Origin: Nitrososphaerota archaeon
Lineage (GTDB): Archaea; Thermoproteota; Nitrososphaeria_A; Caldarchaeales; Calditenuaceae
Direction: 5' to 3'
DNA: 28,076 bases
Assembly: GCA_038741355.1 (NCBI GenBank)
Contig: JAVYLC010000019.1
Location: forward strand, 1 to 28,076
In this document: piece by piece, positions 13,423 to 28,048 of the stretch
Position numbering within the stretch: position 1 is the first letter of the stretch
Layout of the letters: the number at the start of each line of letters is the position of its first letter
Notes under the pieces: model-generated
What the model saw: the letters and a program-made list of their open reading frames with translations, nothing else
Database searches by the model: none
What the model was told of the DNA's origin: nothing
Translations under genes and position numbers: made by a program

Positions 13423-13502
13423 AGGTGTAGGAGGACCTGAATAAGGTTAATCAAATAACCTTGCGGTGCTATTCTCTCGGTGTGAGAGGTGGAGGATGAG
13501 TC

Positions 13503-13823
13503 ATGGAGTTCTGCCCCCGCTGCGACGCTGTCCTGATCGCTGAGCGGAAGTCTAACAGCGTCATCCTAGTATGCAGGAAGTGTGGATATGTGAAGAAACC
13601 TACAGGCGACATAGTAACCCACAAACAGAGGAGGCCGCGGAAAACCGTAATAGTCGATGATGTTGAGAAAGAGGTGCTCCCGAAGACCAACGACGTACAG
13701 TGCCCGCAGTGTGGAAACCAAGAAGCCTATTGGTGGAGCGTCCAAACAAGATCCGCCGACGAGCCCATGACACAGTTCTTCAGATGCACTAAGTGCGGCT
13801 ACACATGGAGAGAGTATGCCTAA
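13503..13823 (+). CDS. tfs: Transcription factor S (TFS / RpoM-like)
   Basis: 106 aa. It has the N-terminal ribbon CPRC...CRKCG and the C-terminal ribbon CPQCGNQEAYWWSVQTRSADEPMTQFFRCTKCG, which contains the acidic SADE loop. Confidence 0.9.
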   Translation: MEFCPRCDAVLIAERKSNSVILVCRKCGYVKKPTGDIVTHKQRRPRKTVIVDDVEKEVLPKTNDVQCPQCGNQEAYWWSVQTRSADEPMTQFFRCTKCGYTWREYA

Positions 13824-13879
13824 ACAGGGGCCCCGCCATCCTCAAATATATTACCTGAAATCTAAGAACTCGTAGTGGT

Positions 13880-13966
13880 GGCCGCGGTGGTGTAGCTGGT
13901 AGCACTCCGGGCTGTGGACTATTGGCAGAAACCCGGCGGTCGTGGGTTCGAGTCCCACCCGCGGCC
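13880..13966 (+). tRNA. tRNA-His (anticodon GTG) with encoded G-1 and a 13-nt intron at the canonical 37/38 position
   Basis: G GCCGCGG TG GTGT AGCTGGTA GCAC T CCGGG CTGTGG[ACTATTGGCAGAA]A CCCGG CGGTC GTGGG TTCGAGT CCCAC CCGCGGC C. The G-1:C73 pair is a His identity feature. Confidence 0.9.
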
Positions 13967-14064
13967 AATCTATTTCTTATGTGTATGTGATGGATCTCGC
14001 CTGTATCTGGCATAGGCACATATATACTCCGAGACGCTTGTTAACCGTGAGCGAGATTAGGAAA

Positions 14065-14874
14065 ATGAGGGGTGAGATACCCACCGTCTATGCTTTGACT
14101 GTCTCCGTAGTGGCGATAGCTGCTGTCCTAGTTGCTTCCTTATACGCGATGAATATGCTAGGAAGCGCCAGTAACGTTCCGTACACGCAGCAGACGGGAG
14201 ATGGTGAGGGAGGGGTCTCAGGTATTCTTGTCCCTGTTAGGGGCATAGGGATTGTTAGGCTAAAACCGGACAGAATGACCTTCATGCTCGGAGTGGAGGC
14301 GCGGGGAGCCACGCCGTTAGAGGCCTCCAACCTGAACAGCGCGGTCGCTGGAAGGGTCGTCGCCTCACTCCTCGCGAACGGAGTGGTTGAGAGGAACATC
14401 AAGACATCATACATCGCAATAAACCCTGACTGGAAGTGCGACAAAGATGGATGCCGCCAGGAAGGGTTCGTCGCCATAAACCAAGTAACAGTGACGCTTG
14501 AGGATAATCTGATATCAGAAGCCCCGAAAATCATAAGCGACGCAATACAGGCCGGAGCGACCAATCTCCAAGGCGCATGGTTCGACCTTAAGGACGAGAC
14601 AAGGCAGAATCTAAGAGACTCAGCGCTCCAGAAGGCGTTCGCCGACGCCACGGCCAAGGTCTCGAAGATTGCTGAGTACCTCAACATGAGAATTAAAGAC
14701 ATCAAGCAGGTCCAAGTCTTGTTCCCCGATGAGGGTGGTGGAATCATACCAATAGCGAGGGTGGAAGTCGGGGTAGCAACTGGGCAGGGTGCTGGCGGAC
14801 CACCCATAATGACTGGCGAAATAACATACACGGTGACGGTTGACATCACGTACGTATTCGAGCCGATAAGCTAA
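14065..14874 (+). CDS. DUF541/SIMPL-like secreted or membrane-anchored protein
   Basis: I chose the ATG at 14065 because the longer ORF from 13942 overlaps tRNA-His. It has an N-terminal TM anchor (VYALTVSVVAIAAVLVASLYA). The body (GIVRLKPDRMTFMLGVEARGATPLEA...GFVAINQVTVTL...) resembles the SIMPL/DUF541 family. Confidence 0.65.
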   Translation: MRGEIPTVYALTVSVVAIAAVLVASLYAMNMLGSASNVPYTQQTGDGEGGVSGILVPVRGIGIVRLKPDRMTFMLGVEARGATPLEASNLNSAVAGRVVASLLANGVVERNIKTSYIAINPDWKCDKDGCRQEGFVAINQVTVTLEDNLISEAPKIISDAIQAGATNLQGAWFDLKDETRQNLRDSALQKAFADATAKVSKIAEYLNMRIKDIKQVQVLFPDEGGGIIPIARVEVGVATGQGAGGPPIMTGEITYTVTVDITYVFEPIS

Positions 14875-18959: not shown

Positions 18960-19009
18960 GGGGCCGTGTCTAGTGGGGGTAGGCGCTGGCTTGAATCCGG
19001 CCTGCCCCA
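18960..19009 (+). other. 50-nt three-armed tRNA-like element (acceptor stem, D-arm and one further arm); tRNA pseudogene or minimal tRNA-like RNA
   Basis: GGGGCCG TG TCTA GTGGGGG TAGG C GCTGG CTTGAAT CCGGC CTGCCCC A. The acceptor stem has 6 of 7 pairs and the D stem 4 bp. There is a single 5-bp arm whose loop CTTGAAT fits neither a T-loop (no C56) nor a clean anticodon loop. The first 9 nt equal tRNA-Pro at 20458. Confidence 0.5.
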
Positions 19010-19050
19010 TATTTCTTATTGGGGAGGAAGGATTGAGGGATTGGTTAGTG
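19010..19050. repeat. tRNA-flank junction element, variant copy (overlaps the last codons of the HEG-like ORF)
   Basis: TATTTCTTATTGGGGAGGAAGGATTGAGGGATTGGTTAGTG is related to 5530-5556 and, more distantly, to the GGGAGGGATGGAGGTGGGTTGG part of the copies at 20534 and 21718. Confidence 0.6.
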
Positions 19051-19698
19051 GCTATCCCCCAGTAGTCCACGCCTTCTAAGATATTCTTCGAGGCGTTGTT
19101 GTTTTCGCTTTATAGTGAACCCTACTAGTTTATAGAATCTCAGCCTATCCCGCGCTTTAACATAGATGTAGTATACATTCTTTCTCTTTTTGTATATCTC
19201 CCCCCGGTTTTTATCGATTGGGGCTCCCTTCCTAATACATATTTTCGGCCCTGTCGTCTGTATTCCTAGAAGCTTCAGAAGTCTCTGAACATATTTGAGA
19301 AGCCTGATATCTGTATTGTAGCAGAAAATATCTCCATCTTTTTTATCTACATGGGCCTCACTATCGAAGAACCCTCTCAGAAAACTCCTCATACCGTCGT
19401 TGGAGTATTCTGTGAAGGGTCTTATTCTATCCAAGTTGAGGGGCTTCTGTAGTAATTCATATAAGGCCTTCGATGAAACACGCATTTTAAGCCTCCCATC
19501 TTCCACTGTTTTTGGCCTCGGCGGCCCCCTTCTAAGAACTCTCCCCAAGCATTCCGCGAACTCCTTTACGAAATCCATGTCCTTTACTTTGACTTCGATC
19601 CTATATTCTCCCCTTCTCCCAACCCTCTCTGGAAAACTCTTATAAAACCAATTTCTCACGGTGCTCCTCGACACGTCTATCTCTGCCTCCCTCAGCAT
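19045..19698 (-). CDS. LAGLIDADG-type homing-endonuclease-like protein, probably N-terminally degraded
   Basis: 217 aa. It reads ...DMDFVKEFAECLGRVL...SFLRGFFDSEAHVDKKDGDIFCYNTDIRLLKYVQRLLKLLGIQTTGP...FYKLVGFTIKRKQQRLEEYL. Only the second LAGLIDADG-like motif is present. The N-terminus begins inside an HTH-like segment (VSRSTVRNWF), with an in-frame TGA seven codons upstream of the ATG start (19720-19722). Recognisable out-of-frame HTH-like codons lie further upstream. Confidence 0.6.
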   Translation of the reverse strand: MLREAEIDVSRSTVRNWFYKSFPERVGRRGEYRIEVKVKDMDFVKEFAECLGRVLRRGPPRPKTVEDGRLKMRVSSKALYELLQKPLNLDRIRPFTEYSNDGMRSFLRGFFDSEAHVDKKDGDIFCYNTDIRLLKYVQRLLKLLGIQTTGPKICIRKGAPIDKNRGEIYKKRKNVYYIYVKARDRLRFYKLVGFTIKRKQQRLEEYLRRRGLLGDSH

Positions 19699-20457
19699 CT
19701 TCCAAACCTTTACATATCAAAGTCCTCTCTTAGCACCTAACTCACCGCCTCATAGGGCCGCCTATCTGTAAAGGCCTGCCACGACAGAGACGAATTCTCG
19801 AAGTAGAGGTATCTATACATATTACTACAGATGCAAAGGCCAGCAGAGTGTGAATATTTTAATGGAGAACTGTTCTACAAATTTATAAAGCTCTACCAAA
19901 CACAGCAAATATTAGACACTATGCAGAACACCAAGAGTCCAGTAACAATATGACAGAATACCAGAGATAATAGCCTACTCGAAAATCGGAGAGATAGAAC
20001 ACATAGTGGTGCCTAGTATACAAAATAATGAGTGGTAGAAGTAGTAAAAAGAGCTAAGACCTTTTTGGAGTGATATGGAGATGGATAAGCATGTTAAACG
20101 TGTGGTGAGTGTTTGATTAAACCGATTGGTGAAGTATATGGCTTAGACTTAATAAATCTTGTCCACCGACCTATGAAAATATTGACAGGTATCAGCCCAA
20201 ACAGAGAACGAGGGCGGATAAGGCGAAGGGTGTGGCCGAGTAGGTTGGAAAGATCTCGAGCTGCAAACTCGTATGCAGGATAACCGTCAGATACGAAGTC
20301 CTAGTCAAGACTGAGAACTTGAAGAAGCTGACAGACACGGTCTTACCCAACATATTCATGATAGACGGCGTTGAGAGAACCGAAACCGCAATAATCGGCT
20401 AACAATCCCTAAAGCTTGGGTTACATTTATTTTTTGCGTACCTGCTTGAAGCCTTAG

Positions 20458-20533
20458 GGGGCCGTGGTCGAGCATGGTCTAAGATGCCTGGCTTGGGCCC
20501 AGGAGGTCGTGGGTTCAAATCCCACCGGCCCCA
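20458..20533 (+). tRNA. tRNA-Pro (anticodon TGG), no intron
   Basis: GGGGCCG TG GTCG AGCATGGTCTA AGAT G CCTGG CTTGGGC CCAGG AGGTC GTGGG TTCAAAT CCCAC CGGCCCC A. Confidence 0.9.
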
Positions 20534-20534
20534 T

Positions 20535-20573
20535 ACCTTGTACATTATTATCGTGATCATGATGTGGTTGGGA
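20535..20573. repeat. Left arm of a perfect 39-bp inverted repeat (junction element core)
   Basis: ACCTTGTACATTATTATCGTGATCATGATGTGGTTGGGA begins 2 nt after the tRNA-Pro discriminator. Its exact reverse complement is at 21679-21717. Confidence 0.95.
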
Positions 20574-20600
20574 GGGATGGAGGTGGGTTGGCTGGGGGTT

Positions 20601-21309
20601 TTAGCGTCCAGTCCGCACCAAGTAGTCCACGAGCCTTTGCTGTTTTCTACCCACCATGAATCCTACGCGTTGTAGAACATCAGCCGAGAGCCAGCAGTAA
20701 TATATAACCCATATTCGTCCTTCTTAGTCCTATATGTTTTTCCCGTCCTCGGGTTTCTGAAGGCTGTTCCACGCCTTGAGTAGAGATGTGGTCCTGTAGT
20801 CTCTATCCCCAGAGAAGAGAGAAGTTGTTTGACGTATCTAAGCAGGGCTAAGTCGGTATTACAGACTGTTACTTCTCCGTCCTCATCCACGCTTCCTTCG
20901 CTGTCGAAGAAGCCCCTCAGGAAAGCCGATTTACATCGGTTAGAGTGTTCTAAAACTTTTTGATCTTCTCCAGCCTTAAAGGCTTCTTCAGCAGCTCGTA
21001 GAGGACCTTACTTTCTAGTTTGACGACGAATCGTCCTCCCGACGACCTAGGATCAGCAGGTTTAGGCGGTTCTCTCTTCAAGACTACTGCAATACGTCTG
21101 GAGAACTCCTGCATGTGAAAGCATTGCGTGAAGAAGCCCAAAGGCAACAACCTCATCCTATGGCTGCTCAGAACATCTGCTACACCCACAACTATCACGA
21201 CATCGACCCTGTATGCTGGCTTCAGCTTAAGCCACTTAGACACTCCTAGATCCTTCGCCAAGACAACCTCATCCCCTCCTCCATAACCCACTTCAAGAAC
21301 TCCCCACAA
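20601..21309 (-). pseudogene. LAGLIDADG-type homing-endonuclease-like pseudogene (at least 2 frameshifts)
   Basis: Three frame segments align to the 19045-19698 protein: ...EFSRRIAVVLKREPPKP...KVLYELLKKPLRLEKIKKF*, a shift near 20945, then LEHSNRCKSAFLRGFFDSEGSVDEDGEVTVCNTDLALLRYVKQLL...SRLMFYNA*, a 1-nt deletion near 20665, then VGFMVGRKQQRLVDYLVRTGR*. Confidence 0.8.
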
Positions 21310-21599
21310 AACATAGAGATCAAGGCTGATGGGTGTGAAGGAGAGGGGGATTTGGAGGAGGCATCTTGGGGTGAGGTTAAGGACTAGAAGGAGAAGATAC
21401 GGCCCTCAGACCTCGTCTAAATGTCCATGACATCCTCTCCCTCCCGCCCCTCTCCCCAGTAGGGTTGACCTGTTGAAGCATTTCAACCAGCTTAGAGAGC
21501 CTCTCATCGCTTATTATCTTCCGGAAGTCCTCTAGGTCCTGATACCCCCAAAGTATGAGGCCTCCCCCCTAGGGGTCCACCGGGTTTATCCCGACGACA

Positions 21600-21678
21600 A
21601 TTAAGAAAGAAAAAAGCAAAGACTGGAGAACCACCTCATATGGACTTGACGGCTAAAAATCCCCACCACCCCATCCCT
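21600..21678 (+). pseudogene. 3'-terminal remnant of a further HEG-like gene copy
   Basis: agaaaaaagcaaagactggagaaccacctcatatggacttgacggctaaaaatcccc aligns with agaaagaggcagaggctggaggactatctcacgaggactggacagctaaaaccccc (about 265-320, encoding ...RKRQRLEDYLTRTGQLKPP). No upstream gene body remains. Confidence 0.6.
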
Positions 21679-21717
21679 TCCCAACCACATCATGATCACG
21701 ATAATAATGTACAAGGT
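21679..21717. repeat. Right arm of the perfect 39-bp inverted repeat
   Basis: TCCCAACCACATCATGATCACGATAATAATGTACAAGGT is the exact reverse complement of 20535-20573. It ends 2 nt from the tRNA-Arg(TCG) discriminator. Confidence 0.95.
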
Positions 21718-21718
21718 C

Positions 21719-21819
21719 CGGGCCCGCTGGGATTTGAACCCAGGACCTCTGGCTCCGAAGGCCAGCGTTCCAGGAGCTATATTCTAAGTGTCTCTCTGTC
21801 CAGGCTGAGCTACGGGCCC
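21719..21819 (-). tRNA. tRNA-Arg (anticodon TCG) with a 26-nt intron in the D-arm
   Basis: The reverse complement is GGGCCCG TA GCTC AGCCTGGACA GAG[AGACACTTAGAATATAGCTCCTGGAA]C G CTGGC CTTCGGA GCCAG AGGTC CTGGG TTCAAAT CCCAG CGGGCCC G. The intron is at about 21768-21793, the same position as intron 1 of tRNA-Arg(CCT). Confidence 0.85.
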
Positions 21820-25953: not shown

Positions 25954-26691
25954 TTAGAGAGAATTAAGGTTTAAGGGTGTTTTGATGATAGTCCTCAGCA
26001 CCGGCTCTGCCACCCTTCTAACACTCTCTTCCAGTTCTCCGGCGAGAAGAAAACCGGTCTGCTTGACTAAGGAGTTGCTGACTAAAAGGGCCGATACCAC
26101 CCTCACCCTCTTCAAAAATCCTAAACTGTAGAGGATCGCGGTCTCCATGTCCACCGCCACAGCCCCTCTCCTCAACCACTTATCCACGAAGCCCTTCTCC
26201 GTATAGAAGGCGTCGCAACTAACTATTGGCGCTACTACATGCCTAATACCCGCTGCCCGGATCTCGCTGACTAGGCTCTCCAAAAGTTGGAAGTCTGGGG
26301 CCGCTGCCAGACAGACAGGCTCGCCGAGATATTGGTGGAATATTCCACCTAAATAGTAGCTCGCACAATGTGGAATAACTACGTCGCCAACTTCTAGCCC
26401 GCCCACCATCGCCCCACACGTCCCGAGCCTAACTATCACTCGGGCCCCAAGCATGACTAGTTCCTCTAAAATCAGGGCTGCAGAGCCTGAACCGACACCG
26501 TGTACAGCCAGGCTGACAGGCACGCCACGATAATTGCCAGTGTAAACATAGTATTCTCTAATCCTGCTCACTAATCGGGGCTCCTCTAAGAATTTTTTTA
26601 AGAACTTGACGCGTGCAGGGTCTCCTGCAACAACAACCCTTTCAGCTATGTCCTCTTTTCTCTCAACCCTGATGTGGAATGGCCCACCCAT
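25954..26691 (-). CDS. Nucleoside phosphorylase (PNP/UDP family 1; purine or uridine phosphorylase)
   Basis: 245 aa. It has VAGDPARV, HGVGSGSAALILEEL, RLGTCGA and VDMETAILYSL, which are typical family-1 motifs. Confidence 0.8.
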   Translation of the reverse strand: MGGPFHIRVERKEDIAERVVVAGDPARVKFLKKFLEEPRLVSRIREYYVYTGNYRGVPVSLAVHGVGSGSAALILEELVMLGARVIVRLGTCGAMVGGLEVGDVVIPHCASYYLGGIFHQYLGEPVCLAAAPDFQLLESLVSEIRAAGIRHVVAPIVSCDAFYTEKGFVDKWLRRGAVAVDMETAILYSLGFLKRVRVVSALLVSNSLVKQTGFLLAGELEESVRRVAEPVLRTIIKTPLNLNSL

Positions 26692-26766: not shown

Positions 26767-26818
26767 TTTTATCAACTATGTATCAAATTTTTAACTTTTT
26801 ATCAACTATGTATCAAAT
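26767..26818. promoter_or_regulatory. Two perfect 22-bp direct repeats (candidate operator) in a divergent intergenic region
   Basis: TTTTATCAACTATGTATCAAAT occurs at 26767-26788 and again at 26797-26818, a period of 30 bp. Each unit contains ATCAA twice, 12 bp apart. It lies between the phosphorylase start (26691, minus strand) and the membrane-protein gene (26918, plus strand). Confidence 0.55.
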
Positions 26819-26917: not shown

Positions 26918-27196
26918 ATGTTAGACCAATATCTCTCCCTATCAATTATGGGGGTAGCTATGCTGGCTATCGGTTCCGTCCTCATCGCGACTAAGAGGAG
27001 GATAGGCGGACTTATTACACTGATAGGTGCCCTCTGGATTCTTACGATGGGTATATACTACGCGTTTCAGTATTCGAGGATTTACGAGACAGGCCTCTAC
27101 CCGGTTGCAAACGTAGTGGGTGTGATAATCCTGATCGTGGGGATAGGCACTGTGCTGTTCTACTGGACCCGGATAGGCTTGTTGAAGAAGAGGTGA
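26918..27196 (+). CDS. Small integral membrane protein (about 3 TM helices)
   Basis: 92 aa, strongly hydrophobic. It ends 6 nt before the next gene, so it is probably co-transcribed. Confidence 0.5.
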   Translation: MLDQYLSLSIMGVAMLAIGSVLIATKRRIGGLITLIGALWILTMGIYYAFQYSRIYETGLYPVANVVGVIILIVGIGTVLFYWTRIGLLKKR

Positions 27197-27202
27197 GGGC
27201 TT

Positions 27203-28048
27203 ATGTCTACGTCTGCCAAGGGAGCTGGCCCGGCCTTATGGGCTCTGGCCTTCATCATCGCGGCACTCTTCATAGCTCTAATCTTCTACATAGGATTCGA
27301 TATTTTAGTGAAAGGGCTTGATAAACCCGAGCAGTGGCTGGTAACCCAGCCACTAGTCTTGCTTGGTAGAGAAGCCCTATTCGCCATCAGCGGGATTTTA
27401 TGGGTCGCCGGCACGATACTCTTCTTCATGGAGTTAAGCGGGTGGACGCTTAAGCGTCTTAGACCGACTAGGCAGGTCATTAAGTGGGATGCTATAGACG
27501 TTTCAATAACCGCGCTAACAGCTGCTGTCTATGGAGGAGCACTGGCAGTAACGGGAGGAATTCCCATAATTCCGGGATTCACGTGGGTTAGACCTGCCAA
27601 TGCATTAGCGCCCCTATTTGGCATTCTCTTCGGAATACCTGGTGCTGTAGGAACGTCTATCGGCAATTTCATAGCAGACGCGTTGGCAGGCTATCTGAGC
27701 GTGGGTAGCATAGGCGGCTTCGTAGGAAACTTCATAATCGCTTACGTTCCCTATAAACTAATGAGAGACCACACGTTTAGGACTCCGAGAAGTATAGTCG
27801 AGTTTTATGTATGGGGGGTTTTGGTCTCCAGTGTATGGTGCTCTTTGTACATCTCCTGGTGGCTGGACGTGGCCGAGCCTGTCATAGGATTGCCTAAACA
27901 GTTCGTCTGGGGTTTCTTCGCCCCATGGGTTATATTCAACAACGCCTTCATAACAGCTATAGTAACACCAATACTTGGCTTCATCCTATACCCACCCATA
28001 AAGGCTCGTGGACTTTACTGGGCGGACAGGTTAAAGATAATCGCCTAG
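27203..28048 (+). CDS. Polytopic membrane protein, possibly an ECF S-component/QueT-like substrate-binding subunit
   Basis: 281 aa. The block VRPANALAPLFGILFGIPGAVGTSIGNFIADALAG resembles the conserved loop of ECF S-components and QueT-type proteins. The assignment is tentative. Confidence 0.4.
   Translation: MSTSAKGAGPALWALAFIIAALFIALIFYIGFDILVKGLDKPEQWLVTQPLVLLGREALFAISGILWVAGTILFFMELSGWTLKRLRPTRQVIKWDAIDVSITALTAAVYGGALAVTGGIPIIPGFTWVRPANALAPLFGILFGIPGAVGTSIGNFIADALAGYLSVGSIGGFVGNFIIAYVPYKLMRDHTFRTPRSIVEFYVWGVLVSSVWCSLYISWWLDVAEPVIGLPKQFVWGFFAPWVIFNNAFITAIVTPILGFILYPPIKARGLYWADRLKIIA

Follow-up and report, generated by a model that had tools for sequence, protein, structure and literature searches.

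Homing endonucleases have been described in introns and inteins, and in phages and organelles they also occur as free-standing genes. Phage T4 SegB is a free-standing GIY-YIG homing endonuclease encoded in a tRNA gene cluster, and the eukaryotic retrotransposons Ty3 and Dictyostelium TRE target tRNA genes under the guidance of Pol III transcription factors. The subject here is a cassette, composed of a LAGLIDADG-type endonuclease gene and a conserved junction sequence, that recurs at tRNA 3' ends in a stretch of 28,076 nucleotides (nt), hereafter the window, which is a complete contig of the metagenome-assembled genome (MAG) of a 'Nitrososphaerota archaeon'. The window probably holds four decayed copies, and perhaps the trace of a fifth, of a free-standing LAGLIDADG homing-endonuclease element that resides in the tRNA 3' flanks of Caldarchaeales; the intact element is ~1.4 kb long and has one gene of ~340 amino acids (aa) that converges on the tRNA.

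The closest described systems are I-DmoI and other archaeal two-domain LAGLIDADG enzymes of rRNA introns, together with inteins of the PI-PfuI type, which share with the cassette protein the fold and the two helices bearing a catalytic Asp and Glu, as well as archaeal hyperthermophile hosts and a selfish pattern of presence and absence. The cassette differs from these in that its gene lies outside any intron or intein, antisense to the gene that it abuts and next to many different tRNAs, and in that its protein has an N-terminal extension of ~130 aa with two helix-turn-helix units. The adjoining tRNAs are complete and no intron family was matched, which sets the cassette apart from the intron- and intein-encoded class; its gene is intergenic and free-standing. 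It resembles T4 SegB (PMC13096335) in being an intergenic free-standing endonuclease gene that lies among tRNA genes and is inherited with them; SegB is a GIY-YIG enzyme of a phage at one locus, whereas the cassette encodes a LAGLIDADG protein, is chromosomal and occupies many loci at the exact tRNA 3' end. With Ty3 and TRE it has in common a position-specific placement at a constant distance from tRNA genes, whatever tRNA these encode, with the genes serving as safe havens, but Ty3 and TRE are retroelements and the cassette is an archaeal DNA element with a nuclease gene. Integrase-type elements also use the tRNA 3' end as a landing site and leave the tRNA functional; unlike them, the cassette has neither an integrase nor a duplicated tRNA segment and is not limited to one tRNA. 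WhiA likewise combines a LAGLIDADG scaffold with helix-turn-helix modules, yet its catalytic residues are gone and it is a conserved housekeeping gene present once, whereas the cassette family keeps these residues and is mobile, decaying and multi-copy. The lack of a transposase domain and of terminal inverted repeats distinguishes the cassette from insertion sequences and transposons. No account of LAGLIDADG genes directly beside archaeal tRNA 3' ends turned up in full-text literature searches, in agreement with the initial annotation of this DNA, to which the arrangement was also not known.

To occupy the exact 3' end of any tRNA gene would be a novel way of targeting for a chromosomal archaeal family, and would make it the archaeal DNA-level counterpart of the eukaryotic tRNA-targeting retrotransposons. 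It offers a concrete candidate for a nuclease recognising a generic feature of tRNA genes, provides natural pairs of empty and occupied alleles and would account for MAG assembly breaks at tRNA loci; mobile DNA beside tRNA genes of variable intron content also bears on the old idea of a link between tRNA disruption and mobile elements.

Cassette copies in the window

The 28-nt junction core ATTATTATCGTGATYATGATRTGGTTGG occurs exactly three times in the window, at 342-369 (-), 20544-20571 (+) and 21681-21708 (-), where none is expected from 100 shuffles, and at the three tRNAs concerned, tRNA-Ala, tRNA-Pro and tRNA-Arg(TCG), the junction starts 1-2 nt past the discriminator base (Table 1). By tblastn with full-length relatives, homologues of a single gene were found convergent with the tRNA past each junction, their 3' ends facing it. 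The initial annotation had claimed at least five instances of this arrangement; three of them stand (Ala-CGC, Pro-TGG and Arg-TCG), as does a diverged fourth, but that at tRNA-Arg(CCT) is reduced to a weak trace, a candidate scar whose position directly after the tRNA makes it plausible.

The Ala copy is homologous over 2-343 (+) to residues 222-334 of the protein P0003 (Pfam LAGLIDADG_3, E 8e-9), and its open reading frame (ORF) continues through the junction, which encodes the tail ...KPPANHPSSPSNHIIITIII up to the stop codon. It is 85% identical over 239 nt to the Pro copy, a pseudogene first given as 20601-21309, whose homology in fact stops at 21114. The diverged fourth copy contains the 217-aa ORF that had been considered possibly intact, a status ruled out by alignment to full-length members: an internal deletion of ~97 aa has removed the second helix-turn-helix and the first LAGLIDADG helix, and the copy is therefore defective. 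None of the window copies is intact; all are defective and incapable of activity, and the decay series proposed at the outset is borne out except for its supposedly intact member.

What had been called a 'tRNA-like element' beside the fourth copy is indeed tRNA-related and can be refined to a degenerate tRNA at 18960-19009, which neither ARAGORN nor Rfam called. It occupies the place of tRNA-Pro in relatives, 54 nt past pgk, and its T arm and acceptor 3' strand are closer to tRNA-Val(CAC) than to tRNA-Pro. The working tRNA-Pro of the window is found 1.45 kb further downstream, behind an unrelated AT-rich spacer of 714 nt. At the same locus in a relative (L024 11305-13672, and likewise in L025) a 36-nt 5' fragment of tRNA-Pro is followed by an insertion of ~2.3 kb and then by an intact tRNA-Pro; the insertion, which L026 lacks, contains a 200-aa ORF besides an N6/N4 DNA methyltransferase. 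The pgk/tRNA-Pro locus is an integration hot spot.

Empty and occupied sites

Syntenic regions were located through homologues of the window PGK, which are 95% identical in L022 and 85% identical in L024-L026. The tRNA-His flank of the window (13968-14002) is empty, whereas in L022 the orthologous flank is occupied by a cassette of 1.4 kb whose gene is intact: window 13438-13970 and 14003-14298 align to L022 4407-4926 and 6338-6640, leaving 32 nt in the window against 1411 nt in L022. The weak trace that had been reported at tRNA-His thus disappears, its TATTTCTTAT being an ordinary T-rich trailer, and the same flank is also empty in L024 and L026. The 1411-nt insertion consists of the junction, the intact 340-aa gene and ~330 nt upstream of it, and nothing more; the gene is its only ORF, and neither an integrase nor a transposase nor a duplicated tRNA segment was found in it. 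The view that no integrase is involved in the cassette is accordingly sustained by an insertion that carries the LAGLIDADG gene alone. There are no terminal inverted repeats in L022 4900-6400 and no convincing target duplication at the insertion, a GT-rich similarity at both of its borders being too weak to call.

tRNA-Pro and tRNA-Arg(TCG) are convergent neighbours separated in relatives by a spacer of 54 nt (L024, L026) or 92 nt (L022) that contains no junction; in the window they are 1185 nt apart, with two decayed copies head to head between them. The flank of tRNA-Ala(GGC) is empty in L022 and is occupied in L024-L026 by a window-like junction and a gene fragment, 76-81% identical to the window Pro copy. 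Presence and absence at orthologous sites are thereby established for four tRNA flanks (His, Pro, Arg(TCG) and Ala(GGC)). Because the empty orthologous flanks lack the junction, it is part of the inserted element, and the comparison of related genomes removes the possibility, named at the outset as a refutation, of an ancestral tRNA trailer unrelated to the gene. On the same ground the junction was rejected as a C/D-box small RNA and as the native trailer or terminator of the tRNA. The tRNAs stay in conserved positions while the cassette comes and goes, which confirms that the cassette, and not the tRNA, is the duplicated and mobile unit.

The 'empty' 92-nt spacer of L022 (11379-11472) is 38 nt longer than that of L026, and near tRNA-Arg it holds CATGGTGAGTGGGG, a possible old scar in view of its likeness to the junction in the tRNA-His cassette of L022.

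The endonuclease

Pfam, profile-versus-PDB and structural matches agree on a gene of LAGLIDADG type, as first proposed. Pfam LAGLIDADG_3 is matched with E 4e-13; I-DmoI is the best PDB sequence match, and the family profile compared with the PDB gives E 5e-8 with both LAGLIDADG helices covered. The AlphaFold2 model of the full-length protein P0002 (pLDDT 87) also has I-DmoI as its best Foldseek PDB match (E 9e-11, TM 0.72 on the target), and the duplicated alpha-beta-beta-alpha-beta-beta-alpha arrangement of the LAGLIDADG fold is predicted in it. WhiA appears among the Foldseek matches at ranks 40-46.

Full-length relatives measure 327-358 aa (~340) and consist of an N-terminal region with two helix-turn-helix units followed by a monomeric, I-DmoI-like two-domain nuclease. 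The N-terminal Pfam matches (HTH_32, Mu Gp27-like) are weak and sub-threshold, HTH_32 scoring 28.8 bits against a cut-off of 33.7. The motifs IGVVAGDG and RGFFDSEG (...RGFFDSEGSV), which align to D21 and E117 of I-DmoI, are present in all ten of ten full-length sequences; no window copy has the catalytic pair, the 217-aa ORF lacking motif 1 and the other copies being fragments.

Association with tRNA genes among relatives

The 217-aa product has a match of 100% identity in a 'Nitrososphaerota archaeon' MAG, and relatives of the window gene come without exception from Caldarchaeales/Aigarchaeota MAGs (Geocrenenecus, Caldarchaeum, Calditenuis, HR01), which displaces the earlier idea of a Thermoproteales host in favor of Nitrososphaerota/Caldarchaeales, and no viral relative was found in 2.9 million viral contigs. 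A census was made of 28 copies, made up of 21 loci (one genome per species), a second copy in L009, the copies of L022 and L024-L026 and the four window copies. ARAGORN or Rfam calls a convergent tRNA at 17 copies, its 3' end lying 50-90 nt beyond the conserved ...RGLL codons, and direct reading adds three more, namely L008 and L011, which have multi-intron tRNAs, and the window copy at the degenerate tRNA, for a total of 20 of 28. The neighbours are diverse; their anticodons can be trusted where the called gene has no intron or where orthology settles its identity, and those so trusted include Ala, Arg, Gly, His, Ile, Pro, Thr and Val. With ~46 tRNA genes per genome (PMC3082918) in ~1.5 Mb, chance adjacency to a tRNA amounts to ~0.3% per gene end.

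ARAGORN is unreliable where introns are present: the window tRNA-His is called Gly or Tyr, and the two Arg genes are called Lys and Ser. Since multi-intron tRNAs are missed or miscalled by ARAGORN and the Rfam tRNA model, adjacency counts based on these tools are too low. Several tRNA genes have at least two non-canonical introns (L008 ~4900-5010, L011 ~4970-5100 and window 5409-5530).

A metagenome scan yielded 80 loci, 13 of which have a convergent tRNA 57-108 nt downstream (ARAGORN); four more are tRNA-linked by reading or by a T-loop motif (L040, L045, L072, L073), and one is co-oriented. The tRNA niche is clade-specific, belonging to the window lineage and several others and not to the whole protein family. 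The preference for tRNA flanks that was originally claimed is accordingly found in the genome copies, but not in a large metagenomic clade without a tRNA neighbour. An outlier of 34% identity (L018 4001-5124) is convergent with an archaeal RNase P RNA gene (Rfam, 178 bits) at a distance of 400 nt.

Movement between tRNAs and changes in tRNA alleles

Relationships of the copies were drawn from an identity matrix of the C-terminal part. The window Ala and Pro copies form one clade with the Ala-GGC copy of L026, with 68-74% aa identity at different tRNAs, and the copies of PSS.bin.6 form another, next to tRNA-Thr(GGT), tRNA-Gly(TCC), tRNA-Val(CAC) and a fourth, intron-containing tRNA (L015). Such within-genome clades at different tRNAs indicate that the element moves between tRNA flanks. 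The three copies of the JBEPYO genome share just 54-61% identity with one another, which implies that several old lineages coexist. Orthology of same-tRNA copies across genera was considered and rejected, for copies at tRNA-Val(CAC) are 41% and those at tRNA-Ala(CGC) 53% identical, no closer than other pairs, and independent insertions are thus indicated. As in many of the loci, the contig edge of the window cuts through the gene, which is what multi-copy or polymorphic DNA would be expected to give.

The occupied tRNA-His of L022 (4849-4923) lacks the 13-nt canonical intron that three empty alleles have, and the D-arm region of the window tRNA-Arg(TCG) is interrupted by a 26-nt intron while its T stem carries compensatory changes, features that are both lacking in three empty alleles (L022 11473-11547). 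Intron content has therefore shifted in two of the three cassette-adjacent tRNA alleles, in opposite directions, the odd allele being in each case the one beside the cassette. These alleles would fit co-conversion from diverged donors, in what are two cases only.

Upstream of three Geocrenenecus dongiae copies there is a GC-rich repeat of 145 nt, 81-93% identical (L001 1-145, L002 1-145, L003 1006-1148); it lies at varying distances from the start codon, and two contigs end exactly at the repeat. A long hairpin-rich non-coding stretch occupies L003 460-1180.

The junction and the predicted structured RNA of a sister clade

On the gene strand the junction is markedly G-poor and opens with a motif close to CCACCCAACCAGCCCTCCCC, which in many copies is translated as a ...PPNQPSP... 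tail. The motif is retained past the stop codon in the Geocrenenecus copies (TAA CATGCCCCCACAACCCCACC), in the 217-aa copy of the window and in the whole of a sister clade, where the 3' untranslated region (UTR) is 86% conserved as against ~79% for the coding sequence and identity falls to 31% just beyond the UTR. Conservation where it is non-coding argues that the junction is a cis element in its own right. Its possible roles are those of a terminator (a T-run often follows), of an anti-Shine-Dalgarno-like partner of a purine-rich leader or of one strand of a long-range helix.

Without exception the sister-clade 3' end reads ...CACCGCGTCTATGGGCTCC; the flanks past it are unrelated and have no tRNA, and the 57-nt 3' UTR stops sharply at GGGCTCC. 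Upstream there are ~1.35 kb of GC-rich, ORF-free sequence with hairpins having GNRA-type loops (L061 1084-2430). According to RNAalifold the 3' UTR is paired to a stretch lying 1.9 kb upstream; in a 15-bp helix, GGAGCCCATAGACGC/GCGTCTATGGGCTCC, 165 of 165 cells are paired and the changes are G-U-compatible only, GGGGGTGGG is paired with the C-rich motif, and a neighbouring leader hairpin has four covarying pairs. In the leader just before the start codon the DUF3800-X RNA, a motif without known function that has been reported beside DUF3800 genes, scores above the Rfam threshold (L096 2317-2388 and L052 2318-2386; 44-46 bits versus 38.2). The sister-clade leader may on this evidence be a new large structured RNA, and as such is a separate lead for RNA biology. 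The tRNA-linked L006, L007 and L003 also have GC-rich leaders, hairpin-rich by reading only; those of L006 and L007 align poorly with the sister-clade leader, leaving homology unproven, and no structured leader was found in the window or in the 330-nt upstream part of the L022 cassette. It is unlikely that the tRNA-flank cassettes are the reduced form of a hitherto undescribed RNA-plus-nuclease mobile element of Aigarchaeota in which the C-rich junction pairs with the ~1.35-kb RNA and so closes the unit. If true, it would point to a new type of homing, intron-like, circular-RNA-forming or RNA-assisted, in which the 3' terminus is set at the RNA level and, beside tRNAs, possibly through antisense-tRNA processing.

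Proposed mechanism and alternatives

We infer that the endonuclease targets tRNA flanks. The enzyme would cut the empty flank and the break would be repaired from the occupied allele, in the manner of homing, the insertion destroying the target site. Since the boundary falls at the same coordinate of unrelated tRNAs, the protein is proposed to read the T-arm box (GGTTCRAATCC), which is common to all tRNA genes and whose distance to the gene end is always 13 nt; the T-arm reader could be the helix-turn-helix region, the cut being made where the gene ends. New flanks would be seeded by rare ectopic repair through one-sided tRNA-tRNA similarity, and it is this one-sidedness that would give a precise tRNA-proximal boundary and a non-conserved distal one.

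A number of observations weigh against a tRNA-flank homing element. Six to eight of the 28 census copies lack any detectable tRNA, L002 lies against the 5' end of a tRNA in its own orientation, and most of the remaining metagenomic loci belong to a clade ~50% identical to P0002 and without tRNA. The distal (5') boundary and the upstream sequence are unconserved between copies, and the moving unit is to that extent not cleanly defined; no recognisable common target other than the tRNA itself was found for the cleavage that we infer. The junction (50-90 nt) ends 1-2 nt after the discriminator base in the window clade and the PSS.bin.6 clade, but the tRNA-proximal 40-65 nt of the Geocrenenecus copies differ from one copy to the next, and the insertion point there may be further from the tRNA. 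The tRNA-Pro beside a decayed copy is unchanged and bears no sign of co-conversion. Furthermore, the nucleotide conservation of the junction after the stop codon points to an extra cis function that simple homing need not have.

This last feature is among those that favor a different origin, in which gene and junction are just the 3' portion of a bigger mobile element with an RNA component (intron-like, circular-RNA-forming or RNA-dependent in some other way) that is placed by RNA structure, for example through an antisense ('mirror') tRNA serving as a 3'-end processing signal or through pairing of the junction with an upstream structured RNA, and in which the window holds only the stumps that remain once the RNA portion has gone. 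The hairpin-rich leader and sharply ending 3' UTR of the sister clade, the RNAalifold pairing and covarying hairpin, the DUF3800-X match in part of the leader and the GC-rich leaders of L006, L007 and L003 are all in keeping with it. However, such an RNA is absent from the 330 nt upstream of the gene in the intact L022 tRNA-His cassette, the long-range helices are near-invariant and hence without true covariation, and no known ribozyme or intron model was matched; the flanks have no conserved host gene, so that a classical intron is not at issue, and the explanation as a whole seems rather unlikely. Less likely again is that there is no endonuclease targeting, the cassettes having spread by homologous recombination or gene conversion through tRNA 3' halves into flanks that are tolerant and recombination-prone. 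The tRNA 3' halves beside related copies are similar, the tRNA-Pro locus is a hot spot with a restriction-modification insertion and a 36-nt tRNA fragment in L024/L025, and the degenerate tRNA at 18960-19009 looks chimeric. Crossovers inside tRNAs would nevertheless yield chimeric acceptor stems, and this argues against passive spread, for the acceptor 3' strands stay each tRNA's own and homology begins after the discriminator base; the maintenance of both catalytic motifs across 45-60% divergence argues in addition for selection on nuclease activity.

Retention of the catalytic residues also separates the family from WhiA, with which its helix-turn-helix and LAGLIDADG architecture and the WhiA structural matches might suggest a kinship of role, i.e. 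a domesticated DNA-binding factor serving the adjacent tRNA gene as a functional pair. Given the presence/absence polymorphism at orthologous sites, the frequent pseudogenes, the variable copy number and the many different tRNAs, such domestication is highly improbable. An equally slight chance attaches to the cassette being cargo of tRNA-targeting integrative elements moved by a tyrosine integrase. tRNA 3' ends are the classical integrase att sites and a restriction-modification element has integrated at the tRNA-Pro locus of L024/L025, but the 1.4-kb tRNA-His insertion has the LAGLIDADG gene alone and no duplicated tRNA 3' segment, the tRNA targets are many, and the 2.9 million viral contigs gave no match.

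Genes and other features of the window

Neighbouring genes in the window are of a chromosomal housekeeping kind (GAPDH, PGK, LeuA-like, HypA and an ECF/ABC transporter). ARAGORN and Rfam gave tRNA-Ala(CGC), tRNA-Pro(TGG), an intron-containing tRNA at 13880-13967 (+) and a weak tRNA match at 21719-21777 (-); the total is five once introns are allowed in the search, with identities set by orthology and direct reading. The window tRNA-Pro, including the first flanking bases, is 98.7% identical over 79 nt to that of L022. In the window and the loci scanned Rfam detected just tRNAs, one RNase P RNA and the two DUF3800-X matches, and no intron or ribozyme family.

Table 1. Positions of tRNA genes, cassette parts and the associated spacer in the window, and of the sister-clade unit in other loci
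Feature	Position	Strand	Basis or remark
LAGLIDADG C-terminal part, ~123 codons (Ala copy), cut by contig end	2..373	+	translation, Pfam, tblastn
Ala-copy junction	311..377	-	exact core 342-369; G-rich on tRNA strand, C-rich and G-poor on gene strand
tRNA-Ala(CGC)	378..451	-	ARAGORN, Rfam; 3' end abuts junction
tRNA-Arg(CCT), with introns	5409..5530	+	5' end resembles Arg-TCG gene
Possible short-variant scar after tRNA-Arg(CCT)	5531..5556	+	27 nt, 74% match to 19024-19050
tRNA-His(GTG), 13-nt intron	13880..13967	+	orthology with relatives
Degenerate tRNA, 50 nt; acceptor, D-like and T arms, no anticodon arm	18960..19009	+	direct reading
T-rich trailer (TATTTCTTAT) and short junction variant GGGGAGGAAGGATTGAGGGATTGGTTAGTG...	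19010..19059	+	read next to degenerate tRNA
Diverged LAGLIDADG copy; 217-aa ORF 19045-19698, homology to 19743	19045..19743	-	tblastn (19743-19060), Pfam, alignment
AT-rich spacer, now upstream region of tRNA-Pro	19744..20457	.	no homologue in any fetched locus
tRNA-Pro(TGG)	20458..20533	+	ARAGORN, Rfam, orthology
Pro-copy junction	20534..20606	+	exact core, repeat matches
Pro-copy pseudogene, frameshifts and stops, family residues ~166-335 only	20607..21114	-	tblastn
Arg(TCG)-copy remnant, ~55 nt, last ~20 codons (...KRKKQRLENHL...)	~21590..21646	+	direct reading; weak tblastn matches 21605-21637
Arg(TCG)-copy junction	21647..21718	-	exact core
tRNA-Arg(TCG), 26-nt intron absent from orthologues in three relatives	21719..21819	-	Rfam weak match, intron-allowing search
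Full sister-clade unit	L061 1084-3424		also L040, L074, L096, L079 and others; partly L011 2272-2862

No homologue of the 714-nt spacer, of the region 21111-21640 or of the far end of the L022 cassette was found in any fetched locus, and an extension of the contig beyond position 1, sought by way of the neighbouring PALP enzyme, was not found. ORF 27203-28048, which has a 31-nt inverted match to the Pro copy, was rejected as a relative because it encodes a hydrophobic sequence with no likeness to the endonuclease family; the match is taken as chance. An intergenic pair of perfect 22-nt direct repeats (TTTTATCAACTATGTATCAAAT), 30 nt apart, is present at 26767-26818, between the ORF 25954-26691 (-) and a small, hydrophobic-reading ORF that starts at 26918 (+).

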